Below are positions 4,640-35,369 of a stretch of DNA of 64,000 nt, piece after piece. The DNA lies in NCBI GenBank assembly GCA_014377695.1, contig JACMPA010000026.1, positions 4,873 to 68,872 on the forward strand, written 5' to 3'. The notes beneath the pieces are model-generated. The model saw only the letters and a program-made list of their open reading frames with translations, was not told where the DNA came from and did not search any database. Position 1 is the first letter of the stretch, and each line of letters starts with the position of its first letter. The translations under genes were made by a program, and so were the position numbers. This DNA comes from Candidatus Saccharimonadota bacterium (GTDB lineage: Bacteria > Patescibacteriota > Saccharimonadia > Saccharimonadales > UBA4665).

Positions 4640-5185
4640 CTATGAATAGGCGGCACAACCACCAATTACATAAGTGAAAATAGTCACGAAATTATCAATT
4701 TTCGTGAAACCCAACCGCAAATAATATCCCAAGACCACTAGGATGATTGTTAACGTGGCGCTGCCGAGAAATGTAAAAAATAGAAACCGAGTATACAGTA
4801 TATGCTGGTATCCGGCCGGCACGGTTACTGCCGTGCGAATACCGGGCACGAATCGCCCAAAAAGACCGTCCGACGGACGTGAGTATCAAATAACTTGCCT
4901 GCTCGATCAATCTTGCGGGTCGTGATACCAAGCCACTTCCCGTGCTTTTCCAAGAATCGTGTAACCTTCTCACGATTTACAAGAGGTGCAACAATATAGA
5001 CTGATACCGAGCCAAGAGTGGAACCGATGGCGCCAGCCACGATAGCGGCCATTAAGTTCAGCGAGCCACGGGACGCAGTATATCCGACAAACGGCATGAC
5101 CGCCTCCACTGAAAAAAAAGAACATGAGGACGATAATACCGGCGTACTTTAATGACAGAATTGTCTCGTAGATGAAGCCGTTCAA
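4640..5185 (-). pseudogene. DedA/SNARE-associated membrane protein, disrupted by two homopolymer frameshifts
   Basis: Three ORF pieces join into a DedA pattern: ...YAGIIVLMFFF|SVEAVMPFVGYTASRGSLNLMAAIVAGAIGSTLGS...RRTVFF|GRFVPGIRTAVTVPAGY. The breaks lie at the A8 run 5112-5119 and the A5 run 4859-4863 (plus-strand coordinates). Confidence 0.7.
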
Positions 5186-5212
5186 ACTACAAGTATAGCC
5201 GAGGTCGTACTC

Positions 5213-5668
5213 TTAGCTATAATTGTTCAACTCTATATTGCTCTTTAGCTTTTTCAGCGCCCTGTCGAACATGCTATTCATGAGTGGTTTAATCAAAAAA
5301 AGACCAGCTTGACCGATAAGCCCGAACGGAACCGGGGTAATCTCCTGCCAGACGAATGTGCAGCTGTCATCCGCATGCGGGTGAACGCTGAATACCCCTT
5401 TGCCGAGGACGATCCTTCCGGTGTGCTCGACGACGATAGTATCGTACGGCTGCCATGTGGTAACTACCATAGTGTCACTGAATTTAAGCGGTCCGAATCC
5501 GGTAACAGCGAGCAGGCTGGCGCCTTGTCCTTTGACCGATTCAGACAAGTTTTTGACAGTAGTAAACGGTATCCAGCCGGACTGCCGTTCCCAGTCCGAA
5601 ACGTACTCAAAGACTGTCTGTTGAGTAGCCTGTATGTCAATTTTAAACGTGAGTGTGATTGTATTCAT
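5213..5668 (-). CDS. SRPBCC (START/polyketide-cyclase-like) family protein
   Basis: About 150 aa. The N-terminus IDIQATQQTVFEYVSDWERQSGWIPF is typical of SRPBCC ligand-binding proteins. Confidence 0.65.
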   Translation of the reverse strand: MNTITLTFKIDIQATQQTVFEYVSDWERQSGWIPFTTVKNLSESVKGQGASLLAVTGFGPLKFSDTMVVTTWQPYDTIVVEHTGRIVLGKGVFSVHPHADDSCTFVWQEITPVPFGLIGQAGLFLIKPLMNSMFDRALKKLKSNIELNNYS

Positions 5669-5697
5669 GACCTTACTGTACCAAACCGCGTTAGAAA

Positions 5698-6804
5698 TTG
5701 GACTATACTAGAATGATGAAACGGTTATCGCTCACAGAACTTGAGAAGTACATCGAGAGCATCGATACGGCCGAGTATGCCAAGACCCGAAATTATATTG
5801 ACGGCTCGACCAAGTTGTCGGAGTATATCAGCCGTGGCTTCATTAGTCTGCCGCGCGTGCAGGAATTGATTCTCAAGAACAATACCAAATCGAGCGCCTT
5901 CAAGCTACTGAGTGAACTATCGTGGCGCGAATATTGGCAGCATACTTGGCGGGTGCGAGGCGACGAGATTTTTGAATACTTTCGCCCCCTCCCCTTCGAG
6001 CCGCGCAGTGGCCTGCCGACCGCCGTACTAGAGGCTAGCACTGGAATAAAAGCCCTGGATGAAGGCATTCACCAGTTATATGAGACAGGTTTTATAGATA
6101 ATCATATGCGCATGTGGCTGGCTGGACTTGTCTGCAACGTAGCTAAATGCGACTGGAAAATCGGTGCGGCTTGGATGCATTCCTATCTGATCGATGGCGA
6201 TTTTGCGAGCAATCATCTGAGCTGGCAATGGGTCGCCGGCAGCTACACGGGCAAGCCGTATTTACCCCAGCAGGCCAACATCAATACATATACCGAAACT
6301 GAGCAGGATGACACATATCTGAACAATACTTATGCGCACATCGCGGACATGGATGTACCTGATGAGTTAAACGATTTGACCAAAACATTGCCCGCGCACA
6401 AAGCGACGATGCTGCATGACACAATAACGATCGATGAGATACACGCTGCTGAGACGGTGCTGTTGTGCAGTCCGTGGACCCTTGATCCTACCTGGCGCTC
6501 CGCCGACACAGGTCAGCGCGTGCTAGTTATTCCGAGTGATATATATCAAGAGGGTGCATACAGCCAACATGTCCTGGATAGCATACAGCACTTCGTACAG
6601 CAGATTGATGAGCTAAGGATATGCAATTTGTCAGATAAACAGATCAAACAGCTTAGCCCCAACACGATACTTCGAAAAGACTATCCTGGTATTGCCACCT
6701 GGCCTGGCCAGGTGGACGGGGCAGAATTACTGCAACCAAACCTACCTGAGAAGTTCTACCCGTCCTACTCTGCCTACTGGAAGGCAATCGAGAAAAGTCA
6801 GTAG
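5698..6804 (+). CDS. Photolyase/cryptochrome-superfamily protein with inverted topology (FAD domain N-terminal; NewPHL-like)
   Basis: The protein starts directly with FAD_binding_7 motifs: YAKTRNYIDGSTKLSEYISRGFISLPRV, ELSWREYWQ, TGFIDNHMRMWLAGLV, DGDFASNHLSWQWVAGS. About 170 further aa follow. There is no N-terminal alpha/beta domain. The TTG at 5698 or the ATG at 5713 could be the start. Confidence 0.75.
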   Translation: MDYTRMMKRLSLTELEKYIESIDTAEYAKTRNYIDGSTKLSEYISRGFISLPRVQELILKNNTKSSAFKLLSELSWREYWQHTWRVRGDEIFEYFRPLPFEPRSGLPTAVLEASTGIKALDEGIHQLYETGFIDNHMRMWLAGLVCNVAKCDWKIGAAWMHSYLIDGDFASNHLSWQWVAGSYTGKPYLPQQANINTYTETEQDDTYLNNTYAHIADMDVPDELNDLTKTLPAHKATMLHDTITIDEIHAAETVLLCSPWTLDPTWRSADTGQRVLVIPSDIYQEGAYSQHVLDSIQHFVQQIDELRICNLSDKQIKQLSPNTILRKDYPGIATWPGQVDGAELLQPNLPEKFYPSYSAYWKAIEKSQ

Positions 6805-7041: not shown

Positions 7042-8532
7042 TTAAACAAGCCATTGTCGCGCGGTTGATTCAATTGTCTGTTGCTTGTCGCTGCTAAATT
7101 TATCGTAAATTCTAACGACCATTTGCATGCGAAAGTTTTGCTTTATAATCTCTCGGTGATCATCTATAAATTTCCAGTACAAGGCATCCCAGACACCAGA
7201 CCACGGCTCTTTCTTGTAATCACTCATTTTTATTATGTAGTTGCTACCGCTGATATATGGCTTAGTCGTTATCAAGGTGCCGGCGGCAAACTGACTCATA
7301 GCGTAGACATTTGGAACCATAACCCAATCGTAGGCGTCAATAAACATCTCCATGAACCACCTATACACATCATCTGGATCAATACGTAGTAAAACCATTG
7401 CATTGCCTAAAATCATGAGACGCTCAATATGATGAGCGTAACCCGTGTCGAGCACTCGCTTGATCGTCACATCAATTGGCTTGATGCCGACGCTGCCGGT
7501 CCACCAGCCATGTTTCAGCTTTTGATGTGCTTCTAAGTAATTTGCAGTACGCATTTCTTTTCCAAAGTGCACATATGTCGCCCGCATGTATTCGCGCCAG
7601 CCAATTACTTGGCGTATAAATCCTTCTAGACTTTCGATCGGTGCCTCGTGCGATTTACTATAGCTAATTGTCGCCTCGACGACCTGACCAGGCGTCAATA
7701 GACCGCAGTTAATGAGCGGGCTCAATATGGAATGGAATAATTCTGATTCTGATTCAGCTATTGCATCCTCGTAGGGCCCAAAGTCAGCTAACCGTTCATT
7801 CAAGAACCGCTCTAACTGCTCCATGGCTTGATCGTGAGTTACCGGGTAGACAAAGGTTTGACTGGTTCCGGGATTGCCTCCAAACGATTCATCAACCCAT
7901 TGCATGGCTTCGGCGACATGGTCCGATGTGTTCGTCGGATAGCATGGCGGCAAGACTATACTCTTGGGCAACTTTTTACGGTTAGAAGCGTCAAAACTCC
8001 AGGCGCCTCCAATCGGTTTATTATCGGCAGTCATTAGAATGTTCAAGCGTTTGCGCTGCCAGGCATAGAAGCTCTGCATACGATTTGGGTTATTACTGAA
8101 GTAATCGTCAATCAAACCGAGGCTGGTTAAAAATCCTGGGGACTCATGCCGCTGGGCCGACACGCCAAGCTCTTCGAAGAGCTTAAACAATGATTCTTGT
8201 AGCCAATCGTCAGTGAGTTCATAGTACGTAATTGCGGACGGTTTTAGGCTACTGAGTGCCTCACCGACTACATCCATACTTTTGCGGTCCGACGTCTCTA
8301 CCACTATTACTCGAAATCCACGAGATTCCAATAGGTCTTTGAAATGACGGATAGACGCACGATGTAGTAGTAATTTCTGTTTATGAAATTTGTATTGCTT
8401 AAAGAACAGGTCGTCTTCAATCAGCAGCATCGTGGTATCCGCCGGGGCGGTAGTGTGCTCAAGGAATAGCTGATTTGGAAATATCAACCTCACCGGTTGT
8501 CGTGTTGGAGTGGGATCAGATATAGCACTCAA
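7042..8532 (-). CDS. FeS-BCP/COG3046-type cryptochrome/(6-4) photolyase-like protein lacking the Fe-S cluster cysteines
   Basis: LIFPNQLF...LLIEDDLFFKQYKFHKQKLLLHRASIRHF, IGWREYMR, TGYAHHIERLMILGN, DAYDWVMVPNVYAMSQFA, KPYISGSNYIIKMSDY. There are only two Cys in 496 aa, and neither sits in the C-terminal DYCxxC...C region. Confidence 0.8.
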   Translation of the reverse strand: MSAISDPTPTRQPVRLIFPNQLFLEHTTAPADTTMLLIEDDLFFKQYKFHKQKLLLHRASIRHFKDLLESRGFRVIVVETSDRKSMDVVGEALSSLKPSAITYYELTDDWLQESLFKLFEELGVSAQRHESPGFLTSLGLIDDYFSNNPNRMQSFYAWQRKRLNILMTADNKPIGGAWSFDASNRKKLPKSIVLPPCYPTNTSDHVAEAMQWVDESFGGNPGTSQTFVYPVTHDQAMEQLERFLNERLADFGPYEDAIAESESELFHSILSPLINCGLLTPGQVVEATISYSKSHEAPIESLEGFIRQVIGWREYMRATYVHFGKEMRTANYLEAHQKLKHGWWTGSVGIKPIDVTIKRVLDTGYAHHIERLMILGNAMVLLRIDPDDVYRWFMEMFIDAYDWVMVPNVYAMSQFAAGTLITTKPYISGSNYIIKMSDYKKEPWSGVWDALYWKFIDDHREIIKQNFRMQMVVRIYDKFSSDKQQTIESTARQWLV

Positions 8533-8542
8533 TGTATTCTCC

Positions 8543-9427
8543 TTATTTCATGTACCGTTTATACGCGTCGGCGGTATAGCGACCATAGTTGACGACTGTT
8601 TCATGTACCGTTACTGCGCTACTCAATTCTAATCCCTTTTCTTGGATTATACGCTCGCGCACTGATTTACGGATGTCTGAAATAACTTTACCATTACTTT
8701 TTCTAGTTGTATCAAAATCGAGCATTGGTTTGGCTGACTCAAGAATTGCTGCGACTGTTCGGTCGTTTGTTTCAGGCAACCAAAAATGAACATACGCCGC
8801 GGTCGGATCACGCTCTTTAAAATTCTTAGTTGGATTATTCATTCTAAACGTTGGACTGAGCGGGCTGGTAATCCCAGCTTGCATCTGCCATTGCCAATGG
8901 TTAGTGGCGATATCTCCATCCACCAGGTAATTCTTAAAATGCCGCGCGCCATGATGCTAGCTCACTCCACAGTTTATGGTAAGAAAAGTAGTTGCCATGG
9001 CTCGCATTCTGAAGTTTATAAAGCCATCAGTACCTAGCTGGATCATTGCAGCATCAAGCAACGGATAGCCAGTCCGGCCATCCTTCCAGCGTTCAAAATA
9101 TTCGAGCTTTTGGCCAGCTAATGGCTCATCGCAGTACACAGCATCAAATTCTGGCAAGCGATTGTGCCACATCAAGTCTGGGTGAAACCACAGGCGCTGC
9201 GTAAAGCTATCGCGCCAACGCAATCGATTCAGGTAGGCAGCAATATCAAAAGCTTTTTTAGGACTAGCCTGCTCAAGCTTAGATCTATGTTTTGCTGCTG
9301 CCTGAAACACCGCGCGACTGGCAATTGTGCCAAACGCGAGGTGGGGCTCTAGCAGTGAGGTAGCACCGTGTTGGGCCAAATATGGCCGAGATATCTTCCA
9401 ACGATAGCCCTCAACCCGGTTTTTCAA
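8543..9427 (-). pseudogene. Photolyase FAD-domain gene remnant: no N-terminal domain and an in-frame TAG
   Basis: ORFs 8957-9427 and 8543-8923 are in the same frame, separated by a TAG at 8957-8959: ...FINFRMRAMATTFLTINCGVS*HHGARHFKNYLVDGDIATNHWQWQMQAGI. The stop sits where the family has Trp. The protein begins at the FAD domain (TSLLEPHLAFGTIASRAV). Confidence 0.7.
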
Positions 9428-9624
9428 GAACGAATATACCTGCTGGCGGGCTGCCGTCTCACCACTTGTAAATTCGCCCCGACAGCAGCTAACATCGGCG
9501 CTAGGATAGTGCCTACTACGCCAATTGACGGCGGAATCTCGATAATTGTTTCGTTATCTTTATTTTTAATATGTATACGTCTGACAGTACTCTCGGCGAT
9601 TAGTGATTTTACTTTCTTAAGCAA
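9424..9624 (-). CDS. DUF4342-like small protein
   Basis: VRRIHIKNKDNETIIEIPPSIGVVGTILAPMLAAVGA matches the pattern I recall for DUF4342. Its stop overlaps the start of the downstream remnant (ATGA). Confidence 0.5.
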   Translation of the reverse strand: MLKKVKSLIAESTVRRIHIKNKDNETIIEIPPSIGVVGTILAPMLAAVGANLQVVRRQPASRYIRS

Positions 9625-9863
9625 GTCTTCACCGTTGACTCTAAATTATTCCGTTCGCTTTGACATTTTAATTATCCTTTCTGAATTTGATTGACTGTAT
9701 ACTTGACCTAATTATGCTAAGCACCCCTCTACGCAGTGCCGTAATGATGCTAGCGAAACTTGTAAGTCTCTGTATGGCGACTACATAGGCTACTGCTACG
9801 ACGTCTTCCCGGCCTCTCGCCAGAATTGCGGTCGCATCACGTTGTCCACCACTTGCCCTATAT

Positions 9864-10401
9864 TTATCGTGATAAATCATCGACGTTATACTCAAATGTT
9901 TCAAGTGTCTTGAATAAATCGGTATACTCGCCGTGGTCCGGGCAGGCGTACACAGCCATCCGAACCTGCACCGGTTTAATACTGAAGCTAACATAACTGC
10001 CAGCCTCCAGTTAGCTTAGTGGCGGGACGCCAGTCTGACTACTAGCCAGGCTTGTGTCCAATACCCGGGCGGCGTCCGCATTCATAGCAAACCCATTATC
10101 TACTTCTCAAGGCTATGCCGCTCAGCTGAACGGTAGGCTGAGTAAGCGGCTCGAATACAGTCAGCATGAAACGATCATTGTGCATTAAGTTATCGTATTT
10201 TTTTGTTTCCGACTTTGTCAGAAATGCAACCTCAAACTGTTTGTTAATCGTATAATGGATGCCTGCCCCATGTGGATCACCATTCGCATCAATGGTGCTC
10301 AGCACCCCCATCGAAGTCGCAAATAAGAAATCATACATGCGCTTCTGCGTATCGGAAAATTGTTTTGTTTCCTGCTCTAGTCCGTCGGTCACTATGTGCA
10401 T
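9864..10401 (-). pseudogene. Pyridoxamine 5'-phosphate oxidase-like (FMN-binding split barrel) pseudogene
   Basis: The intact N-terminal 101 aa include LFATSMGVLSTIDANGDPHGAGIHY...AFLTKSETKKYDNL. After about 10105 the family pattern continues in another frame and through a stop: EVDNGFAMNADAARVLDTS...PPLS*LEAGSYVSFSIKPVQVRMAVYA. Confidence 0.5.
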
Positions 10402-12281: not shown

Positions 12282-13820
12282 CTATTGATTGAATTTATTG
12301 GCTAGGCGCGCAAAGTCGGCGATGTCAACCTTACCACTACTGTCAATATCAGCACGAGGATTAGTTAACTGAGCCGTAGTACGGTTGAAATTAGCTGACA
12401 AGATCGAGAAGTCGGCGATGTCGACTCTACCGCTCATATTTATATCTTCGGCGCGGAAGGTACTGTTGGTAACCGTTACGCTGACACTAGTGCTTGGCTT
12501 AGTATTTCCAGCAGCGTCACGAGCGATAGCAGTCAAGTTGTAAATACCGTTAGCAGTCGTAGTTGTATTCCAACTAGTGCTAAATGGTGACGACGTGACT
12601 TCAGCATTTAGATTAACGCCGTTTAGCTGGAACTGGACACCCGTTACTCCGACTGCATCGGAAGCTGTAGCAGTAAGCGTTACAGGGCCATTAAGAATTG
12701 CATTCGCAATTGGTGCGGTTATAGAAACTGTCGGTGCCGTAGTATCGGCAGCTGGAGCTAACGTTGTCAGTGTAGCGTCAGGTGACATCGTCAAGTTACT
12801 GGCTGCGTCTTTGGATTTCACTCGGTAGTGATACAGCGTGCCGGCCGTCAAGCCGCTAACATTGACACTATGAGTAGTCACTTTAGTGGTTGCGAGGGTC
12901 GAAGTACTACCATATGCAGTCGTAGTACCATATTCAACTTGCGAGTCCGCAGCTTCATTTGTCGTCCATGTGACCGTGGCCGAGGTTTGAGTGATGCTGC
13001 TGCTAGCAACCACACTCACGGTTGGCGCCGTACTATCCGGGATAGTAAAGGTTACCTGGCTACTTGATCCGACATTACCGACGCTATCTGTGGCCTTCAC
13101 GACTAACGTATGTGACCCGACGCTCAAACCGTTCAAGCTGAGCGGTATCACATATGCACCTGTAGTAGGCGTAGCATCAGTAGCGGCGGCCGTAGTACTA
13201 CCGTCTAAGTAAGCAGCAATACTCGTAATTGAGCTTGTGTCGGTAGTAGTTCCGGTAATATTAGTGGTAGCACCACTCACAGAAGCAGCATTAGCCGGGG
13301 CAGTTACCGTAACAGTTGGGGCAATCGTATCGCTCGAAGCACAATTTTCACCGTAATAATTAACGCCACCGATTGCCACGGCCGTATTATCGGGCACACA
13401 GCTGCTGTCGCCGGTCATAATAATGCGATCAACTTCGACGTTGTCATCTTTTCCAGCCATGGTAACCGTGAACGCTCCGGCTGAGTTAGAACTAACAACG
13501 ACTGGCGTAGCGTACTTGACCCAGGTCCATGTGTTAGCAGTTAGGGTCGTGCCGCCCATGGTCGCCCCACACAGCAAGTTTGAACCAGCGTTATCTATGT
13601 TCATATAATACGCGTTATTGGCCGGTGTAGCCGTGCGAATACGACTCCAGATCGTATAAGTACCCGCAGTCAGTGATGCGGACTGGGTCACAGTACCTCT
13701 GTCGGTTGGCAAGGCGGCACAAGCAGCTGAAACAGGTTGCTGAGATGTCGTATACATGAGACAGGTTGTAACCGTTAATACGGCTATCAAGAATCCAGCC
13801 ACTCCACTTTTGATCGTCAT
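12282..13820 (-). CDS. Secreted multidomain protein: CBM-like module, Ig-like repeats, FN3, C-terminal dockerin
   Basis: Signal/anchor GFLIAVLTVTTCLMYT. CBM-like TAGTYTIWSRIRTA...VEVDRIIMTG. FN3 ATVTWTTNEAADSQVEYGTT...LYHYRVKS. Two dockerin Ca-loops: DINMSGRVDIADFSILSANF and DIDSSGKVDIADFARLANKF. Confidence 0.8.
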   Translation of the reverse strand: MTIKSGVAGFLIAVLTVTTCLMYTTSQQPVSAACAALPTDRGTVTQSASLTAGTYTIWSRIRTATPANNAYYMNIDNAGSNLLCGATMGGTTLTANTWTWVKYATPVVVSSNSAGAFTVTMAGKDDNVEVDRIIMTGDSSCVPDNTAVAIGGVNYYGENCASSDTIAPTVTVTAPANAASVSGATTNITGTTTDTSSITSIAAYLDGSTTAAATDATPTTGAYVIPLSLNGLSVGSHTLVVKATDSVGNVGSSSQVTFTIPDSTAPTVSVVASSSITQTSATVTWTTNEAADSQVEYGTTTAYGSTSTLATTKVTTHSVNVSGLTAGTLYHYRVKSKDAASNLTMSPDATLTTLAPAADTTAPTVSITAPIANAILNGPVTLTATASDAVGVTGVQFQLNGVNLNAEVTSSPFSTSWNTTTTANGIYNLTAIARDAAGNTKPSTSVSVTVTNSTFRAEDINMSGRVDIADFSILSANFNRTTAQLTNPRADIDSSGKVDIADFARLANKFNQ

Positions 13821-13823
13821 AAG

Positions 13824-15305
13824 CTAGAGTACCTTCCCTGCTTCGTCATCATGATGTGGCTGTACGACACTACCAGGTGCAGGTATATGAATTGTTCGCG
13901 GCGGGGTTATGCTAGGCGCAGCTTGATACGGACTAGGTGGCGACTGCAGGATTCCCACTGTAGGCACAGAAGCGGTATTAGCAGTTAGAGTTTGCCAACG
14001 TTCCATGAGATTCAGTCGGCTGCGCAGTACGTAAGCTGCCGCGGCTGCGACTAGCAGCAAAAGGAACACAACTGGGACAACTAGTGGCACTGATTTACTG
14101 GCGGAAACCGGAAGTTTTACGGAAACATTTTGCAAAGCAGATGTCTGGGTGCCAGTTGAAGGATTAGTAACGATGTTGTTGTCGACCGCAATAGCTTGGC
14201 TGTACTCTTTGCCATCAGCCTTGTAGCTAACATGGTGATTTCCTGGGGCTACGTCAGTGAACATGGCTACACCGTCAGAGTCAGTTTTGACAGTCTGTGG
14301 GTCAGAGTGAAGCACTATTTCAGACTTTTTGAGTGGCTTGTTATCTTTATCGAGCATTGTGACTCGCAGCCTAAAGCCTTTAGTCTTAAATGTTTTGATG
14401 TCGGACTGCATCATGTTACCACCAGCATCTTTAGCGTAAACCTGGTAAGAATATGACACACCCGGTAGCAGCCCTGCAGTGGCTATATCTATATCATGGG
14501 CCGTTGCTAACTCCGACAGACCAGTTTGAAGATTCAGTTGGTCACCAACGCCATACTTGATGTACACCTGTGTTGGTTCGTTAGTCATTAAACTCACACT
14601 GGCGCTATTGTAGTTTAGCTTATCCTTTGGAATCTCAACGTTTTGAACTTCAGGCGGCAGTGTATCAACGGCAGTAGATGTTGGTGTAGGTGTAGGTGTC
14701 GATGTCGGGGTCGGGGCGGTCGAAGGAGTAGCTGGTTTTGGTGTCGTAGTTGTTGGTGTAGGTGTTGGTGTTGGTGTTGGTGTTGGTGTTGGTGTTGGTG
14801 TTGGTGTTGGTGTTGGTGCACTAAAAGCAACAGTACCGTTGCTCACTGCTGGGTTTGTATACGTACCATCAGGTGTACTAGCATCGGCAGCCGACAAAGT
14901 TAGGCCAGTTGAACCGCTACCACTTAGAGCTTGAAATGTCACATTTGCAATAAGTGAGTCGCCCGATACTGCAGCTCCGCCTAGACTAATGCCCCGTGCC
15001 AAACTTAAACTATTGGTAGACACAGATTGTGCTAAACCAGTGCTAAATGCTGACTGTGACGAGTCTAGGCTAATGTATCTGAGTTTACTACTATCCCAGT
15101 TAAGGCTAAATTGCACAGCGCCCACCGTACTGCCCGGGTTAATTCGGATAGCGACAGTTACATTTGCTTGATTTAATACGCTGATCGCACCTGGACTTAC
15201 GTATATTTGGCCGGTACCAGCTAGAGCGGTGCTTGCAGTTAACACACCCATAGCCATAGTGACGGCGATTAGGACGGCTACTTTTATTGTTTTTGAATGA
15301 CTCAT
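13824..15305 (-). CDS. Membrane-anchored cohesin-domain protein with PT linker, FN3-like and CarboxypepD_reg-like domains
   Basis: Signal peptide AVLIAVTMAMGVLTASTALA. Cohesin-like segment GQIYVSPGAISVLNQANVTVAIRINPGSTVGAVQFSLNWDSSKLRYISL...GDSLIANVTFQAL...VSNGTVAF. (PT)n linker. RLRVTMLDKDNKPL...DSDGVAMFTDVAPGNHHV. C-terminal TM VPLVVPVVFLLLLVAAAAAYVL. Confidence 0.8.
   Translation of the reverse strand: MSHSKTIKVAVLIAVTMAMGVLTASTALAGTGQIYVSPGAISVLNQANVTVAIRINPGSTVGAVQFSLNWDSSKLRYISLDSSQSAFSTGLAQSVSTNSLSLARGISLGGAAVSGDSLIANVTFQALSGSGSTGLTLSAADASTPDGTYTNPAVSNGTVAFSAPTPTPTPTPTPTPTPTPTPTPTTTTPKPATPSTAPTPTSTPTPTPTSTAVDTLPPEVQNVEIPKDKLNYNSASVSLMTNEPTQVYIKYGVGDQLNLQTGLSELATAHDIDIATAGLLPGVSYSYQVYAKDAGGNMMQSDIKTFKTKGFRLRVTMLDKDNKPLKKSEIVLHSDPQTVKTDSDGVAMFTDVAPGNHHVSYKADGKEYSQAIAVDNNIVTNPSTGTQTSALQNVSVKLPVSASKSVPLVVPVVFLLLLVAAAAAYVLRSRLNLMERWQTLTANTASVPTVGILQSPPSPYQAAPSITPPRTIHIPAPGSVVQPHHDDEAGKVL
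14761..14814. repeat. Perfect hexanucleotide microsatellite (GGTGTT)x9 encoding the Pro-Thr linker
   Basis: Nine perfect ggtgtt units were counted directly, flanked by imperfect copies. The repeat is in frame within the cohesin gene. Confidence 0.95.
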
Positions 15306-15661
15306 CGGTGTTTTTTCCTTGAGTTGTCAATTGGTCAGTTGGCTTTGTAACCCCGGCTGACAGTTGTTGACAGGCTTATTGAAGCACTATTTATTATGTG
15401 TATGTCCTTGGTATGATGTACCTTACGCTTATGTATGTCAAGTTATTTATTGCTCAGCTAGAGTTATTTCTACGTACCGCTGCAATTGCGGATGGCTAGC
15501 CCATAAGAGCATAAGTATATCTAACGTCATCAATAGCAATCTGCTAGCCTCTTCTGGCTTGGGGAGGCGGGATACTGTTCACGCCTCCCCAGTTGGTTAA
15601 TGAGTAAACTGAAAGTTTTCGAGCGTATTATGCATCTCTATGCATCTCACATTAAGGAGAT

Positions 15662-23932: not shown

Positions 23933-25285
23933 TTGCCTCTAGACAAATTTGCATTCATGGTTATAATCATGCTTAAGGATACAAAAAAGAAAACTATGAC
24001 AAAAAAGATGCTCAAAAGCAAACCAGTTAGTAAGATATCAAAGGCTAAGCCCGCAGTAAAACCACGAGCCACCAAAATTGTCAGTAAAGCCAAGGTAACG
24101 ACCAAATCACACCCAACGACAGCGTCGAAAACGGTCGTAGCTAAAAAAGCCCGCAAATCAGTTACGTCTAAAAAAAGTGTCCAACCTAAAGGCTTCAAAC
24201 ACCACGCAAAGCGGATTTATCATCTAACTCCAAAGTTTATCCACGGTATGGTGGCTGGTGCGTTCGTTGGCGTAGTACTAGTAACGTCCCTCGGCATCAC
24301 TGGCGGTGCGGTTAACGCCAACCCAGCCCCGGCTGGTTGTATAAAAGTAACTGACGGCATTAACGTCAATAACGCCAATGCCAATGCTACCGTTAAGCTC
24401 AACGATGGCTGTGGGGTTCGTAAATTTGTACTAAAAGCCTACTACGCACCGAACGATAAAGGCGGTGCTTTTGGATCACAGCAAGTACAATTTGCTGTGA
24501 CAACACCACCAGCAGTCGTAAAAACTGCTGGACACGAACCAGTCAAAATCCACGTAAATATGTTTGATAACAGTTGTTTCTACCAAGTTGATTTGGTAGA
24601 TGTTACAAATGGTGACAACGACGGGAAGAATCCGATCGCGGCTGTCGCAACCGGCGGCAAAAAAGACTGTCGACCCGATCAATCACATGCCTACGCTTGT
24701 GGGAGTCTCGGACTAACGCCTGGTGATCACACAGCTACAATTTCTACCTTCACGACAACTCAGACGAACGCCACGTTTACAGGCGCTACCATTGACTGGG
24801 GTGATAATACAATCGTCCAGGCCACCGCTGTACAAGGGCAAACCCACAAATACTCAGCCGACAATACCTACACTGTCTCAGTAATCGCTAAATTCACCTA
24901 TACTGGCCGATTTGACGGCGTACACAATGTAACCGCACCGGCCTGTAGCCAATCAATTACGTTTGCCACGCCGCCACCCAACACTAAGTTGATTTATATC
25001 TGCCAAATCAGTTCCAAGCAGATTGTGAATATCGACGAGAAACTGTTTGGCACACCGCAGTACCCTGTCGACCAGTACACAAAAGATTTGACACAGTGTG
25101 TGGTCGTTCCACCGCCAACAGCCCCTCCAACCACGACTCCACCAACTAATGCGCCCCCTGCAACCTTAGCCAACACTGGTCCCGGCGCCGTACTCGTAGT
25201 ATTTGGCCTGGCCATGATCGGCGGCTATGTGTTCCACATGACCCACCGCCACGTCCAACACAAAAAACGCTCACACCGGGCTTAG
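23933..25285 (+). CDS. Cell-wall-anchored surface protein with a PKD-like domain and an LAxTG sorting signal
   Basis: Lys-rich N-tail, signal-anchor MVAGAFVGVVLVTSLGITGGAVNA, PKD-like IDWGDNT...HKYSADNTYTVSV, PT-rich stalk. The C-terminus is LANTG + hydrophobic stretch + HRHVQHKKRSHRA. The start is uncertain: TTG at 23933, ATGs at 23957, 23969 and 23996. Confidence 0.7.
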   Translation: MPLDKFAFMVIIMLKDTKKKTMTKKMLKSKPVSKISKAKPAVKPRATKIVSKAKVTTKSHPTTASKTVVAKKARKSVTSKKSVQPKGFKHHAKRIYHLTPKFIHGMVAGAFVGVVLVTSLGITGGAVNANPAPAGCIKVTDGINVNNANANATVKLNDGCGVRKFVLKAYYAPNDKGGAFGSQQVQFAVTTPPAVVKTAGHEPVKIHVNMFDNSCFYQVDLVDVTNGDNDGKNPIAAVATGGKKDCRPDQSHAYACGSLGLTPGDHTATISTFTTTQTNATFTGATIDWGDNTIVQATAVQGQTHKYSADNTYTVSVIAKFTYTGRFDGVHNVTAPACSQSITFATPPPNTKLIYICQISSKQIVNIDEKLFGTPQYPVDQYTKDLTQCVVVPPPTAPPTTTPPTNAPPATLANTGPGAVLVVFGLAMIGGYVFHMTHRHVQHKKRSHRA

Positions 25286-25676: not shown

Positions 25677-26078
25677 TTAGAAACTTGGTGTCTTTAATAT
25701 GCCCGCAACTAAATTATCGATGTCATCGTTGGCCATGTTGGCTTTTATGACGTACCCGGCAATGCCCAATTCGGCTAGATTAGAAGGTGCTTCGGCTTGG
25801 TTTAGGTTCGAGATAATTAGCACTTTGATATCTTTGCCCCATGAGCTGGCGCGCATTGTTTCGAGGACTTTGCCGCCAGGGATATCTGGTATCATCAGAT
25901 CCAGGAGCACAAGGTCGGGCACTTCTTGTTGAATAAAATATAGACCGGTTATACCGTTGTAGCCGATAAAGCAGGTGTAGCCGAGTAGTTCGAGCCGAGT
26001 TTTGTAAATCTCGGCTAAGGCGCTATTGTCTTCGACAATAACAATTTTTTGGGTAGGTGGGGTAGTTGGTGTATCCAT
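25677..26078 (-). CDS. Single-domain response regulator (receiver only)
   Basis: IVIVEDN, phospho-acceptor context PDLVLLDLMIP, conserved K in YVIKA. Confidence 0.85.
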   Translation of the reverse strand: MDTPTTPPTQKIVIVEDNSALAEIYKTRLELLGYTCFIGYNGITGLYFIQQEVPDLVLLDLMIPDIPGGKVLETMRASSWGKDIKVLIISNLNQAEAPSNLAELGIAGYVIKANMANDDIDNLVAGILKTPSF

Positions 26079-26125
26079 GGGATCATTCTAGCACCTGTCA
26101 GCTGAATCAAGGTATACTTTACTCA

Positions 26126-27742
26126 ATGAACGCCTTTTATGCGGTGCTGCGACATCGATCCCGAGTACTAGCCTATTTGTTCGGCAGTTTCGTGGTGAGT
26201 TTGTGGACTGTATTACGGCACATTAGCAATGGGGTAAACTTCGACGTCGTCGGTCAAATCGGCTTAGCTCAACAATGGGCGAATGGCTTTCACAGTGGGG
26301 CGCAACTTGGCGCTACCAACTACGTACTAAAAATACCCCTTTACATGCTAGTGAACGACTTTGGGTTTATTAGCCCGATGCACCGCTTACTGCTACTTGC
26401 TCTACTCTGTAATATCGCGACTTTTGCGTTGCTGTTCTTAGTGTTCGAAAAGATTGCCAAGTTGTATGAAATTCGCAATACGCTTTGGTTGTACCTGGCT
26501 ATGATCTGGCTAGCTACGATAGCCGGTAACGTCTTCTGGACTGATTACGCTAATTCTCGTAACTTAGAAACCGTTGGCGGAATTTTATTCCTGTACCTTG
26601 TCCTCAAGTTTATCCGTTCACAGTCGGTTGGTACGGCCAGTCTAGCCGTACTAGCTGGTAGTATCGCATTCTTTGCCGATTCACTACAGTTGTATATTTG
26701 TGGCGGTGGCGCCTGCTTATTTGTCGTAGCTAGGTGGCTGATACGCCGCCAATGCCAGGCTGCAGTTGTAGCTGCTAAAATCATTGGTATTATCCTTCTG
26801 AGCTACGGTGGGGCTAGATTAATCCGTATCATCGTCGAACATACACTACACGTTAGCTTTTTGCTGGCACCACGAGTGGAAATCAAGCTTGACGCGGCGA
26901 CAGTCAGCCAAACCCTGCGAACGGTTTGTAGTAGCACTCTGGATATTTTTGGAGCGAATGTCTTTAAACGACCTTATGATCTTAACTCGGTCCGTGAGGC
27001 TTTGAGTCTCGTAGTACTGGTTGTAGTTATTGCTTTACTCATCCGAGCGGCTGCCACAATACGTTCTAGATCGGCAATGGGTCTTGGACTTAGCGCAATT
27101 TTCGTGAGCTATGTGATTTATGTGGCTAGTGGTCAAGTGCTGGTTCCAGTAACCTACCGTTACCTCATCATGGTACCGCTACTCCTAATACTACTCATTT
27201 CGAATGCGGGTGATGCCATTGGCGGTAGACGTACTGTTGCTGTCGCACGGTTACAGTTTGTTTGGCTAGCCGTCTCACTTGTGAGTAGTGTCATGCTGGC
27301 TGGTGCAGTCGCAACTCATTGGCCAACACGACACGCCAACGACGCACACATCTACGCCACGAGCTCATTTTTGACTAGCAACAACTTGCAGTACAGCCTA
27401 TCTTCACGAGAAGCCGGCATCACTACTACGTATTTTGCCGGTGGCAGAGAAACCGTACTACCCCTCCTCTGTACTGCCGATAACCGTTTAGTTCTGACAG
27501 ATTTATTCTACGACAAGGCTGCCTTCGAGAGCTTTCAGAATTACCAAGGTAACACTGCCATCATTGTGCCCGGTACGGGCATTGTGTCCGGTAGTGACGT
27601 TTGCGACACTACCGCCATTACCGCGCAGTTTGGGCCTCCAGATAGTCAGGGACCCGTCCCCGGAGTTGGTACAGCACTCGTGTACACGCCGGCCGAGCTG
27701 CGGGCACACTTAGCACCGCTGCCAGTTGAGGATGTGCGCTAA
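26126..27742 (+). CDS. Polytopic membrane protein; possible GT-C-type glycosyltransferase
   Basis: More than 10 hydrophobic helices and a soluble C-terminal region of about 120 aa. No diagnostic motif was recognised. ATG at 26126 (MNAFY) preferred. Confidence 0.5.
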   Translation: MNAFYAVLRHRSRVLAYLFGSFVVSLWTVLRHISNGVNFDVVGQIGLAQQWANGFHSGAQLGATNYVLKIPLYMLVNDFGFISPMHRLLLLALLCNIATFALLFLVFEKIAKLYEIRNTLWLYLAMIWLATIAGNVFWTDYANSRNLETVGGILFLYLVLKFIRSQSVGTASLAVLAGSIAFFADSLQLYICGGGACLFVVARWLIRRQCQAAVVAAKIIGIILLSYGGARLIRIIVEHTLHVSFLLAPRVEIKLDAATVSQTLRTVCSSTLDIFGANVFKRPYDLNSVREALSLVVLVVVIALLIRAAATIRSRSAMGLGLSAIFVSYVIYVASGQVLVPVTYRYLIMVPLLLILLISNAGDAIGGRRTVAVARLQFVWLAVSLVSSVMLAGAVATHWPTRHANDAHIYATSSFLTSNNLQYSLSSREAGITTTYFAGGRETVLPLLCTADNRLVLTDLFYDKAAFESFQNYQGNTAIIVPGTGIVSGSDVCDTTAITAQFGPPDSQGPVPGVGTALVYTPAELRAHLAPLPVEDVR

Positions 27743-32109: not shown

Positions 32110-33804
32110 ATGACACTGACCGATGATGAACTCGCCAAGGTACTAGAGCACCTTAAGTATTTGCCGCCCGCCAAATTAGCTTCTGCCCAGGCTGATGCTA
32201 AGCTCGAAGAGCTCAGTCTATCTGATGCCTTAGTTCAACATGATTATCTCAGCGAGGATGAAGTTGGCAAGGTAATGGCTTTCCATTATCAATTGCCCTA
32301 CGTATCGCTAACGAGCGTGAATATTGCTGATCCGTTACTACGGCTTATTCCTGAACAAGTTGCTAGTCAATTTCAGACCGTACCATTCAAAATAACAGAT
32401 AACAGCATGCACATCGCTACCAATAATCCTACGGCCACTGACTTATTTGGCATGTTGGCCAAAAAAGCCGGAGCAGCTGATTACAAAGTATCGTTTGCTA
32501 CCGAAGCCGGTATTGCGGCTGCGCTTCATTTGTATAAGCAACAGCTCCAAGGCGTCTTCGATGCGCTACTTGCCCAATCGAAACGTAATGCCACTGAGCC
32601 GATCGCCAAACTTGTCGACAAACTGTTTGAGTATGCCTATGACGCGCGCGCCTCAGACTTACACATTGAACCACTGCGCGAAAAGACGGTGGTACGTTTT
32701 CGAATCGACGGTGTGCTACATGACGAGGTGTTCTTCCCGAAGAAGATTCACGATCAGATTGTCAGTCGGTTAAAAGTACTGGCTCGCCTAAGAACCGATG
32801 AGCATTTAAGTGCCCAAGACGGTCGATTGCACGTCACACTCGGTAGTGAGCAGTTAACTGTTCGTGTTTCGATTGTCCCGAATGTGATGGGCGAAAAAGT
32901 TGTGATGCGGTTACTAGCTAAGCATAGCCGTCAGTTTAGCCTGACAGATCTTGGTATGAGTGATTCTGATCTGAAACAAGTGCGGACGGGCTTTGCCCGG
33001 CCGTTTGGAATGATTCTATCGACCGGACCAACCGGGTCCGGTAAGACTACCAGCATGTACGCCATCCTAAAGATTCTCAACACCCGCGAGCGCAACATTG
33101 CCACGATCGAAGACCCCGTCGAATACGAACTTGATGGAATTAATCAGATTCAGGTCAATGCCAAAACTAACCTGACCTTTAGCGAGGGCTTACGGTCGTT
33201 ACTACGCCAAGATCCAGATGTGCTATTCGTCGGCGAGATTCGCGACCAAGACACGGCGAGTATCGCCGTAAACGCTGCTATGACTGGTCACTTAGTGCTC
33301 AGCACCATGCACACTAACGATGCAGTTACGACGCTGCCCCGTTTAGTGGATATGCAGATCGAACCGTTCCTAGCCGCGTCTACGGTCAATGTGATTGTGG
33401 CTCAACGTTTGGTCCGCAAAATATGTAGTCATTGTAAATCTAGCTTGGAGCTAAAACGTACCAGTAAAGGCTGGCTTGGCGACGCCGCTCAAGCAGCCGT
33501 CCTGAATGCTTTGAATCCCGTAGTCATCGATAAGCATTTTGGCAAAAAAGCCTCCGTCCGAGTTTATCGCGGCACGGGCTGTAGCGCCTGTCACGATACT
33601 GGCTATCAAGGTCGAATTGGTATTTTTGAGGTATTAGAGGTCACGCCAAAGCTAGCACAATTAATCAGCGCCCGGGCTGACACCGACAGTTTGCTCGCTC
33701 AAGCTGTTGCTGACGGTATGGAGACAATGCTGGATGATGGTTTAGAAAAAGTCCTTAGCGGCGAAACGACGCTACTCGAAATTCTAAGAGTCACTGAGGT
33801 CTAG
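32110..33804 (+). CDS. pilB: Type IV pilus assembly ATPase (GspE/PilB family)
   Basis: T2SSE N-domain, Walker A GPTGSGKTT, Asp box, Walker B VLFVGEIRD, His box, tetracysteine CSHC...CSAC. Confidence 0.93.
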   Translation: MTLTDDELAKVLEHLKYLPPAKLASAQADAKLEELSLSDALVQHDYLSEDEVGKVMAFHYQLPYVSLTSVNIADPLLRLIPEQVASQFQTVPFKITDNSMHIATNNPTATDLFGMLAKKAGAADYKVSFATEAGIAAALHLYKQQLQGVFDALLAQSKRNATEPIAKLVDKLFEYAYDARASDLHIEPLREKTVVRFRIDGVLHDEVFFPKKIHDQIVSRLKVLARLRTDEHLSAQDGRLHVTLGSEQLTVRVSIVPNVMGEKVVMRLLAKHSRQFSLTDLGMSDSDLKQVRTGFARPFGMILSTGPTGSGKTTSMYAILKILNTRERNIATIEDPVEYELDGINQIQVNAKTNLTFSEGLRSLLRQDPDVLFVGEIRDQDTASIAVNAAMTGHLVLSTMHTNDAVTTLPRLVDMQIEPFLAASTVNVIVAQRLVRKICSHCKSSLELKRTSKGWLGDAAQAAVLNALNPVVIDKHFGKKASVRVYRGTGCSACHDTGYQGRIGIFEVLEVTPKLAQLISARADTDSLLAQAVADGMETMLDDGLEKVLSGETTLLEILRVTEV

Positions 33805-33810
33805 TCAATA

Positions 33811-34878
33811 ATGTCTACAACCGACAAACACCTAAACATACACTTGAAGGGTAAAGAACGGCTTAGTTTATTTAGTGATTTATCAACCATGCTAACTGCC
33901 GGGATTCCGATCTTAGAAGCCGTCGAATCGCTCGAGGAAGACGTCCGTGGCAACATGAAGAAAGTTCTAGCGATCTTGCACCACAACCTCAATAACGGCG
34001 AGCCTTTGTCGATGGGGTTAGAACGTATGCCCCATGCTTTTGACCCGATTACCGTCAACCTGATACGGGCTGCAGAAGCGGGTGGCACGTTAGAGGAAAC
34101 GCTGCATGACATTGTGCAGACTACCAAAAAAGAGCTGGCTTTCAGCGAGCAACTCCGTAACACCATGATCTACCCTCTGTTTGTAATGGGCGTGTTCATG
34201 ACCATCGTCATCCTGATGTTGACCTTCGTAATTCCACGAGTCGCCAAAGTATTCGAAACGATGCACGTCCAAATGCCGTTCGTAACCCGGATGATGATAT
34301 CGGCATCAAAAACATTCAATGATCACTGGATACTCATTGGTATCGCTTTTATCGCGCTGATCATTTTTGCAGTTGGTTTCGTCAAGGTTAATAGCCGTCC
34401 GATTGCCCGCTTACTTTTGTCGTTACCCGGTTTGAAAATACTCGGGACTAACATTGACCTAACACGCTTTACGCGCAGCTTCGGTTTGCTCATGCATGCT
34501 GGCGTCCCAGTTATCGAAGCGCTCGAGTTATCAGAGAAAGTTGTTCGCAAGAAACAGCTTGTTGAGCTCGTGCAAGACATGAAGCGCAATGTAGAGAACG
34601 GTAAACCGTTATCGACCGGGATGCGTGGCAAAAGAGGCCTAATACCACCAATTATGTCTCGGTCAATCGAAACTGCCGAGGAATCCGGCACGCTCGAACA
34701 GACGATGCAGAATCTGACCGAATATTTCGATGACCAAGTTGCCGGCAGCGTCAAAGTCGTCAGTAGCCTGATTGAGCCAATATTACTGGTCATGGTCGGT
34801 TTAATGGTTGGAGCACTGATGATTACGATTATCGCCCCAATTTATGGCTTAATATCTCAAATTAATCCGAAGTCATAG
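33811..34878 (+). CDS. pilC: Type IV pilus platform protein (GspF/PilC family)
   Basis: Two T2SSF repeats (LSTMLTAGIPILEAV; FGLLMHAGVPVIEAL) and three TM segments. Confidence 0.9.
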   Translation: MSTTDKHLNIHLKGKERLSLFSDLSTMLTAGIPILEAVESLEEDVRGNMKKVLAILHHNLNNGEPLSMGLERMPHAFDPITVNLIRAAEAGGTLEETLHDIVQTTKKELAFSEQLRNTMIYPLFVMGVFMTIVILMLTFVIPRVAKVFETMHVQMPFVTRMMISASKTFNDHWILIGIAFIALIIFAVGFVKVNSRPIARLLLSLPGLKILGTNIDLTRFTRSFGLLMHAGVPVIEALELSEKVVRKKQLVELVQDMKRNVENGKPLSTGMRGKRGLIPPIMSRSIETAEESGTLEQTMQNLTEYFDDQVAGSVKVVSSLIEPILLVMVGLMVGALMITIIAPIYGLISQINPKS

Positions 34879-34883
34879 GGCAT

Positions 34884-35369
34884 ATGTTCCGCAGCATCAC
34901 TACTGACCAATCGGGATTTACACTCGTTGAAGCGTTGGTTGTAACTGGCATACTCGTCATCCTGTTTGCGGTTGGGGCAGTAAACCTCGGTCAGCCTCAG
35001 ACTAACGCTCGGTCAATCAGTGCCGTGGACACACTGGTTAACGACCTAAAGTCGCAGCAGATCGCTGCCATGGCTGGAGCAACGGGCAGCACGGCTGCTC
35101 AACAGGCAGCAGGTATATTTGTGCAATCCAATCAATACACCTTGTTCAATGGCGCCAGCTTTAGTGCTGGTAACAGTTATAACTACATGTTTACGCCCGC
35201 TATCGGCGTCGCATTCGGCACAACCTTCCCCGGCGGCATCATATTGTTTACCAAGGGGGCTGGTGAATTAAGCGGTTTCACGGCGGGTAATAATACCATA
35301 ACCGTAACCGCTGGCGGTGTCAGTAAAGTCATCACTATCAGCCGCTTTGGAGCGGTGACAGTCACATGA
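34884..35369 (+). CDS. Minor (pseudo)pilin with prepilin-type N-terminus
   Basis: QSG|FTLVEALVVTGILVILFAV. Confidence 0.8.
   Translation: MFRSITTDQSGFTLVEALVVTGILVILFAVGAVNLGQPQTNARSISAVDTLVNDLKSQQIAAMAGATGSTAAQQAAGIFVQSNQYTLFNGASFSAGNSYNYMFTPAIGVAFGTTFPGGIILFTKGAGELSGFTAGNNTITVTAGGVSKVITISRFGAVTVT

Follow-up and report, generated by a model that had tools for sequence, protein, structure and literature searches.

How might a secreted protein that carries no anchor of its own be kept on the surface of an ultrasmall epibiotic bacterium? The question is raised by two adjacent genes, here called A and B, in a 64-kb stretch of DNA (64,000 nucleotides (nt) of contig JACMPA010000026.1, from a Candidatus Saccharimonadota bacterium) which was the whole of the genome available for analysis and is referred to below as the window; motif scans covered all six of its frames. 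Type IV pili are implicated in the way such bacteria recognise and attach to hosts, and the one Saccharibacterium that is genetically tractable requires a dockerin-domain protein (PMC10633639). The interpretation favoured here, to which we assign a probability of roughly 0.6, is that A and B constitute a two-gene operon of a Saccharibacteria-like bacterium specifying a non-covalent surface-display device, in which a Ca-dependent interaction between cohesin and dockerin plausibly keeps B attached to A at the cell surface. The cassette is a concrete and testable candidate, made up of two small modules and one jelly-roll of about 130 residues, and the analysis defines a family of transmembrane-anchored single-cohesin scaffolds. 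Should binding between A and B fail, the finding would be reduced to one of ordinary co-located envelope proteins. The original prediction, made from the letters of the DNA alone, had placed the two genes 3 nt apart, and this layout was confirmed on the minus strand:

13824-15305, minus strand: gene A, candidate monovalent membrane-anchored cohesin scaffold (open reading frame of 493 amino acids plus stop)
12282-13820, minus strand: gene B, predicted secreted dockerin cargo (open reading frame of 512 amino acids plus stop)
13821-13843, minus strand: A-B junction, reading GGGAAGGTACTC-TAG-CTT-ATG, with a GGGAAGG motif resembling a ribosome-binding site within the 3' end of A, then TAG-CTT-ATG; the gap is 3 nt

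The features allocated to A are as follows.

15219-15305, minus strand: signal peptide, residues 1-29, with cleavage predicted between ...TALA and GTGQ; hydrophobic segment at residues 9-27, A-x-A conserved in homologues
14820-15218, minus strand: cohesin module, type-I-like, residues 30-162 (Pfam; AlphaFold2 with Foldseek)
14661-14819, minus strand: Pro/Thr-rich linker of about 55 residues, 163-215 (read from sequence)
14379-14648, minus strand: FN3-like spacer, about residues 220-309, with the FN3-like module at 227-309 (hhalign)
14106-14375, minus strand: CarboxypepD_reg-like beta-sandwich, residues 311-400 (Pfam, 23 bits, below the cut-off of 32.3)
14022-14087, minus strand: predicted transmembrane helix, residues 407-428, then RSR (Kyte-Doolittle peak of 2.79 at residues 409-427)
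13827-14021, minus strand: putative cytoplasmic tail, residues 429-493, ending PAPGSVVQP (sequence and family alignment)

The proposal depends first of all on the cohesin. This module matches Pfam PF00963 with 37.7 bits against a gathering cut-off of 24.1 (E 2.9e-9, residues 48-159), and an AlphaFold2 model of residues 26-167, built on a 21-sequence alignment, has a predicted local distance difference test (pLDDT) score of 93.4 and displays the nine-stranded beta-sandwich that defines the cohesin fold. When the model was compared with the PDB using Foldseek, the top 50 matches were all cohesins, the best of them 6kgf_C (E 9.8e-10, template modelling score (TM-score) 0.83). TM-scores to type I structures were 0.79-0.83, and those to types II and III were lower (0.59-0.77). 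A single-sequence search of the PDB with the module gave no match. The cohesin originally called in A accordingly passes the profile cut-off and superposes on solved cohesins. As to the rest of that description, the Pro/Thr linker and the transmembrane helix stand, as does the FN3-like spacer, which has no Pfam match of its own and was identified by hhalign comparison of family alignments with the fn3/Pur_ac_phosph_N (PAP-N) domain of B (probability 95.3%, E 2.3e-8); the CarboxypepD_reg-like module is matched at a sub-threshold level only, although precomputed annotation lists CarboxypepD_reg in four homologues (P0001, P0003, P0004 and P0005), weakly in two of them. Signal-peptide cleavage and membrane topology are predicted. 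Sortase anchoring was considered and rejected, since the LPXTG motif is absent from both A and B, and Pfam gave no S-layer homology (SLH) match in A; in its proposed function A would resemble the anchoring scaffoldins, but judged by possession of SLH or LPXTG it is not one of them. The end of the tail bears a motif, P-x-P-G-[SN]-V-V-Q-P, confined to close homologues (17 of 147 family representatives), which may be a lineage-specific cytoplasmic interaction motif.

The features of B, the proposed cargo, are equally discrete.

13725-13820, minus strand: signal peptide, residues 1-32, with cleavage predicted between ...PVSA and ACAAL; hydrophobic segment at residues 6-24
13332-13724, minus strand: N-terminal jelly-roll resembling carbohydrate-binding module (CBM) families 6, 35 and 36 (CBM6/35/36-like), residues 33-163, with four invariant Cys (AlphaFold2 and Foldseek)
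13035-13328, minus strand: Ig-like spacer 1, Big_7-type, about residues 165-262, boundaries approximate (Pfam; Big_3_3 at residues 223-280)
12762-13025, minus strand: FN3/Pur_ac_phosph_N-like spacer, residues 266-353 (Pfam)
12471-12734, minus strand: Ig-like spacer 2, Big_7, residues 363-450 (best Big_7 stretch at residues 363-431; Big_13 at residues 381-450)
12288-12449, minus strand: type I dockerin, residues 458-511 (Pfam; Ca loops at 12411-12446 and 12315-12350)

The dockerin matches PF00404 (Dockerin_1) with 31.7 bits against a cut-off of 22.9, and so do the dockerins of all members of the B family (24/24), here taken as a 24-member collinear alignment. Both calcium loops, DINMSGRVDIAD (12411-12446) and DIDSSGKVDIAD (12315-12350), are complete, in agreement with the double loop originally reported; they are the sole dockerin-like loops in the window. 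They present D, N/D, S, D and D at ligand positions 1, 3, 5, 9 and 12, and the residues at positions 1 and 12 (D459, D470, D491 and D502) are invariant in 24/24 homologues. As in type I dockerins generally, the module is a near-symmetric duplicated F-hand, the helices following the loops being placed by alignment; a single-sequence PDB search returned weak matches to dockerin structures (2y3n_B, 2ccl_B and 1ohz_B). The Ig-like and FN3 domains predicted for B are likewise borne out above Pfam cut-offs: the two Big_7 domains together score 81.6 bits, Pur_ac_phosph_N 39.5 bits (cut-off 30) and fn3 25.4 bits (cut-off 25). Nothing else was found that would retain B at the cell. It has no transmembrane helix and no LPXTG motif, and wall-binding families of the SLH and LysM type are absent from its Pfam scan. 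The possibility that B is a lipoprotein was rejected, because the invariant Cys is preceded in homologues by D, P or L, which does not fit a lipobox.

The N-terminus of B requires comment, because the NCBI record calls the protein as 440 residues starting from an internal Met73, so that the signal peptide is lost together with some of the jelly-roll head. The 512-residue form is backed by a Logan gene call and by 23 collinear homologues, in all of which an Ala-rich, A-x-A-like stretch lies directly before the invariant Cys34. The exact 493-residue A protein is not in the protein collection, so that A too has probably been called differently.

The AlphaFold2 model of the head of B (residues 32-169, pLDDT 89.9) is a beta-jelly-roll, and the family alignment reveals conserved aromatic residues and the four invariant cysteines, which probably form two disulfides. 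Foldseek matched the model to CBM36 (1w0n), CBM6 (2cdp), CBM35 (2w3j) and domain III of Cry5B, weakly (E 2e-3 to 2e-2, TM-score 0.43-0.54, or about 0.5, and 12-23% identity), and the same fold is common to domain III of Cry toxins and to a lectin-like domain of a Klebsiella phage tailspike; a viral structure library gave generic jelly-roll matches only. No Pfam CBM family matched B at E<=1, a single-sequence PDB search with the head found no match, and members of the B family showed only weak GH115_C and CE2_N beta-sandwich matches. The closest solved structures to the head, itself about 130 residues long, include those of CBM36 (1w0n, 1ux7), CBM6 (2cdp, 2cdo, 1nae) and CBM35 (2w3j, 2vzr, 2w87); it differs from these families in the weakness of the matches, in its two probable disulfides, and in having been seen only in company with dockerins. 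A search with the head alone gave four matches, all short proteins and three of them with a Pfam dockerin; no glycosidase fusion was among the four. The CBM-like module of the original prediction thus survives at the level of fold, without a Pfam CBM match, and because of the weak structural matches "CBM-like" is used here as a statement about fold only.

Taken together, these assignments suggest the following arrangement. A would be exported and retained in the membrane by its single C-terminal helix, as a type I membrane protein, while its two beta-sandwich spacers and Pro/Thr linker would carry the one type-I-like cohesin out across the envelope. B would be secreted without an anchor, and its C-terminal dockerin would plug into the cohesin of A in a Ca-dependent manner, so that the CBM6/35/36-like head, with its probable disulfides, would sit outermost on the Big_7-FN3-Big_7 stalk. 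Its ligand would most likely be a glycan, either of a host cell envelope or of an environmental polysaccharide. The binding of B to A and its dependence on Ca, the recognition of a glycan and the nature of the target are inferences, and attachment to a host is speculation. In relatives the same type of scaffold would serve other dockerin cargos whose genes adjoin it.

Proteins so rich in Ig- and FN3-like spacers and in Thr, Ser and Pro, belonging to a widespread family of stereotyped architecture, could also be thought of as building material, with A and B forming an S-layer-like coat or a spacer layer and the head binding the cell's own wall polymer. This seems to us highly improbable. Pfam scans detected no S-layer, SLH or lattice-forming family, NCBIfam gave just a chance-level match (E 0.31) to an anammox S-layer glycoprotein model, and a stalk that comprises 0, 1 or 3 spacers in different relatives, together with the S53 peptidase cargo described below, is better suited to the display of effectors.

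Relatives of B are many and collinear, about 500 residues long and 45-70% identical; those of A are 35-50% identical, so that A has diverged faster than B. All the named relatives belong to Candidatus Saccharibacteria or Saccharimonadales, which fits an affiliation with Saccharibacteria, as do the type IV pilus genes of the window. Pairing was counted over distinct loci that contained sufficient upstream sequence and a gene of B type, meaning one that encodes both the CBM-like head and a dockerin. There were 16 such loci (the window, L001, L004, L007, L009, L010, L011, L012, L014, L015, L016, L017, L021, L033, L035 and L097), and in 16/16 the next gene upstream, on the same strand, is an A-type cohesin gene, an association far beyond chance. 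Three of the 16 (L014-L016) were reached from the dockerin side; precomputed Pfam annotation shows no cohesin there, and the upstream cohesin was recovered with the family hidden Markov model (HMM) at E 1e-38 to 1e-61. The distance from stop to start is -4 to +3 nt in 11 pairs, which suggests translational coupling.

The A family itself is large, an exhaustive profile search at E<=1e-30 yielding 481 clusters at the 50% identity level. Among the top full-length representatives the N-terminal cohesin is present in 135/135 and the C-terminal transmembrane helix in 132/135. In public annotation most of these are hypothetical proteins, although NCBI names one A homologue a "cohesin domain-containing protein". 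Neither the conserved cassette nor the A scaffold family is described in the literature searched; the modules are known, and the gene pair has been noted once before (Starr et al. 2018). To that earlier report the present work adds family-wide conservation, the transmembrane anchor, the variable cargo, and a correction of the cellulosome label.

The cargo varies markedly. The CBM-like head may be followed by three spacers (about 500 residues), by one (about 315 residues; L004 and L010), or by none, in which case it is joined almost directly to the dockerin (204-231 residues). L008 has an A-type gene facing, in convergent orientation, a gene whose product joins an S53 sedolisin/kumamolisin-like peptidase (PDB 1t1g, E 4e-14, a comparison that covered L008 only) to fn3 and dockerin domains; L020 has the same convergent layout, with an fn3-dockerin cargo that falls in the same cluster as the L008-like proteins. 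A scan of metagenomes with the dockerin subtype produced 80 loci, 17 of which contain a distant second cassette: a dockerin protein of about 640 residues with an unassigned N-terminal region and, 0.5-0.9 kb downstream of its gene, a partner of about 520 residues consisting of signal peptide, cohesin and transmembrane segment. Seven further loci with long dockerin proteins of the same cluster lack a cohesin, and all seven have less than 730 nt of downstream sequence; L047, a short-ORF (open reading frame) member of the cluster, has full flanks and no cohesin. Representative coordinates are:

L008:5205-7013, minus strand: S53-fn3-dockerin cargo
L020:2357-4174, plus strand: fn3-dockerin cargo
L052-L090, e.g. 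L063:2264-4174 and 4722-6257: second cassette

The "minimal pair" of the original prediction is too narrow, given the S53 peptidase, the cargos of about 640 residues and the Coh-Doc (cohesin-dockerin) adaptors found in relatives. Because the cargos vary while the modules remain the same, the constants appear to be a cohesin on a transmembrane-anchored stalk and a dockerin on a secreted protein. It is tempting to go further, and to see in the cassette a single example of a modular "plug-in" surface toolkit shared across the Saccharibacteria, and perhaps by further ultrasmall bacteria, which would provide the epibiotic cell with its interface for recognising hosts and processing their surfaces, alongside type IV pili. 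A membrane-anchored monovalent cohesin stalk could then accept interchangeable cargos, namely lectin-like heads on 0, 1 or 3 spacers, an S53 peptidase, or cohesin-bearing adaptors. This wider generalisation is put forward tentatively, and in our estimate is rather less than even in likelihood, by some distance.

Separately, L023 (2801-4174) and L024 (2810-4174) encode single proteins of about 455 residues with one or two cohesins, Big_7 and a dockerin; such proteins look like adaptors, and could stack on an A-type scaffold.

Several observations weigh against the proposal that A displays B, and some of them also favour the idea that the two are not cognate, each binding some other protein, encoded at a different place in the genome or borne by another cell, with their adjacency reflecting mere co-regulation of envelope proteins. 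A mirror-tree comparison of cohesin and dockerin distances over 12 pairs gave only weak co-variation (Pearson 0.50, Spearman 0.27), a result that is uninformative because shared phylogeny alone could give such a correlation. In L025 and L048 the dockerin subtype is present, and the nearest 2.4-4 kb or so contain no cohesin. The metagenome-assembled genome of a Candidatus Saccharibacteria member has, some 6 kb away from its A-B pair, a further gene that encodes a cohesin and nothing else (183 residues; L001:1862-2413, minus strand), so that some genomes hold more than one cohesin, and since the genome under study was seen over 64 kb only, further cohesins or dockerins may exist elsewhere in it. 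Also on this side are the weak CBM call (TM-score about 0.5, E about 2e-3, no Pfam CBM), and two features of the cultured epibiont Southlakia epibionticum. In that organism the dockerin-domain envelope protein SEML1_0315, which is essential for epibiotic growth, has Ig/FN3-like domains as well as a dockerin-like domain, and host glycans have been suggested as its target (Wang et al. 2023, PMC10633639). The protein has 927 residues; its gene is flanked by an alpha/beta-hydrolase gene and a tRNA and does not adjoin a cohesin gene, and Pfam accessions for cohesin or dockerin are absent from the tables of the same study. A link between B and SEML1_0315 was considered and is not established, given the different neighbours and the lack of those accessions in the tables.

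Orphan non-cellulosomal cohesins and dockerins are, moreover, established to be common (Peer et al. 2009, as represented in a citing text). We nevertheless judge it very unlikely that A and B bind other partners. The adjacency in 16/16 loci and the 11 pairs with stop-to-start distances of -4 to +3 nt speak against it, as does the fact that cohesin and dockerin are precisely what stays constant when the rest of the cargo changes. In the window, HMMs built from homologues detected a single cohesin module and a single dockerin module, so that the count of other dockerins proposed in the original prediction comes to none within these 64 kb, and B would otherwise be left without means of retention. 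The lack of any other anchor on B, the tight coupling of the genes and the conserved pairing argue for a cognate pair, and the same three features, with B held by its dockerin alone, strengthen the logic of scaffold and cargo.

The A-B pair is not a cellulosome. Cellulosomes are recognised by a scaffoldin with several cohesins, and A has one, the only one in the window; by catalytic subunits bearing dockerins, and B has no catalytic domain, nor is there another dockerin in the window; and by a cellulose-targeting CBM on the scaffoldin (for example CBM3), and A has no CBM. The distinction matters since a pair of this kind was described by Starr et al. (2018) as a "simple, two-subunit cellulosome" in the soil Saccharibacterium Candidatus Teamsevenus rhizospherense (PMC6031116). 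There, genes for a predicted membrane protein of 476 residues and then a protein of 309 residues lie on the same strand, 2 nt apart; the first was manually labelled a dockerin and the second a "type II cohesin", and the pair was read as serving cellulose degradation (PMC6031116). In sizes and geometry it matches A followed by a short B (about 315 residues, as in L004 and L010), and is probably the same cassette; judged from the table description rather than from sequence, the two labels look reversed relative to the A/B family. The window pair departs from that account in having no catalytic module and a type-I-like cohesin, and as no enzyme is involved the label "two-subunit cellulosome" is corrected here.

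A related reading, in line with Starr et al. (2018), is one in which the assembled pair acts as a "mini-cellulosome" that tethers the cell to environmental polysaccharide (beta-glucan, or plant or fungal wall) or harvests it, nearby secreted glycanases carrying out the digestion, and hosts are not the target at all. The CBM6/35/36-like fold of the head is compatible with this, and the T. rhizospherense pair, of the same geometry, comes from a soil organism with 1,3-beta-glucan hydrolases (PMC6031116). In five relatives genes for GH16 and/or PL14 enzymes lie directly downstream of the pair (L004-6, L010 and L097), with coordinates as follows:

L005:3047-6775: GH16/PL14 neighbours
L010:9588-10586: GH16/PL14 neighbour
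L097:6496-7425: GH16/PL14 neighbour

Because of these neighbours an environmental glycan stays a rival to host attachment as the target. Such substrate capture we nonetheless regard as unlikely. A and B have no catalytic module between them, A has a single cohesin rather than several, and none of the adjoining GH16 and PL14 genes encodes a dockerin. The adjacency is limited to the short-cargo sub-lineage. In the window the annotated genes that flank the pair, such as those for a Zn-dependent alcohol dehydrogenase (ADH), an FMN reductase and a Crp regulator, were not found to include a carbohydrate-active enzyme. In L005 a similar N-terminal stretch, about 60 residues long, recurs in the products of the GH16 gene, the PL14 gene and a gene of unknown function (540 residues), none of which has a dockerin.

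Known clostridial anchoring proteins use SLH repeats as their anchor. A is like OlpA and OlpC of Clostridium thermocellum (3ul4, 4dh2) in placing one type-I-like cohesin on a cell-bound protein, which could retain one dockerin-bearing partner there, and its cohesin model superposes on theirs, and on those of the type I pairs of C. acetobutylicum (CohA2, 6kgf) and C. cellulolyticum (2vn5), with TM-scores of 0.79-0.83. It differs from the Clostridium systems in that the anchor is a C-terminal transmembrane helix, rather than SLH repeats or a sortase signal; in that the cargo is a non-catalytic lectin-like protein, rather than an enzyme; in the tight two-gene cassette; and in an identity to solved cohesins of only 10-20%. 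The Archaeoglobus fulgidus cohesin 2xdh ranks seventh among the structural matches to A (TM-score 0.75-0.78) and, like the Clostridium perfringens modules 2jh2, 2w1n and 2vo8, exemplifies the use of cohesins outside plant-fibre degradation, as is proposed here. Those non-cellulosomal modules are housed in enzymes or multi-module soluble proteins, and none of them combines a transmembrane-anchored monovalent scaffold with an adjacent cargo gene.

The signals for expression of the pair are less distinct. A strong hairpin lies at 15561-15590, between the A-B pair and the upstream ADH gene, and one promoter-like site was noted 5' of A; promoter-like sites in the region are no more numerous than in shuffled sequence.

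15413-15441, minus strand: promoter-like TTGACA-17-CATCAT, 5' of A (weak evidence)

Elsewhere in the window, a type IV pilus cluster at 32110-37240 (plus strand), probably extending to about 42500, is typical of Saccharibacteria, in which pili mediate host association. It comprises a PilB-like T2SSE ATPase (32110-33804), a PilC-like T2SSF protein (33811-34878) and an LVIVD-repeat beta-propeller protein (35366-37240), followed by several ORFs of 160-240 residues that are maybe pilins. Two ORFs without a Pfam match at E<=1e-5, of 450 residues (23933-25285, plus strand) and 558 residues (26066-27742, plus strand), adjoin genes for a PIG-L deacetylase and a GT2 glycosyltransferase. A 156-residue FAD_binding_7 fragment (8957-9427) lies beside an intact photolyase-related gene (7042-8532), within a region of about 1.5 kb (8786-10400) that contains short overlapping ORFs only and looks like a decayed second photolyase gene. 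Finally, the minus-strand ORF at 61461-63989 encodes an 842-residue protein with Phage_lysozyme2 and CHAP domains, a large muralytic protein that could act on the wall of a host or neighbour.

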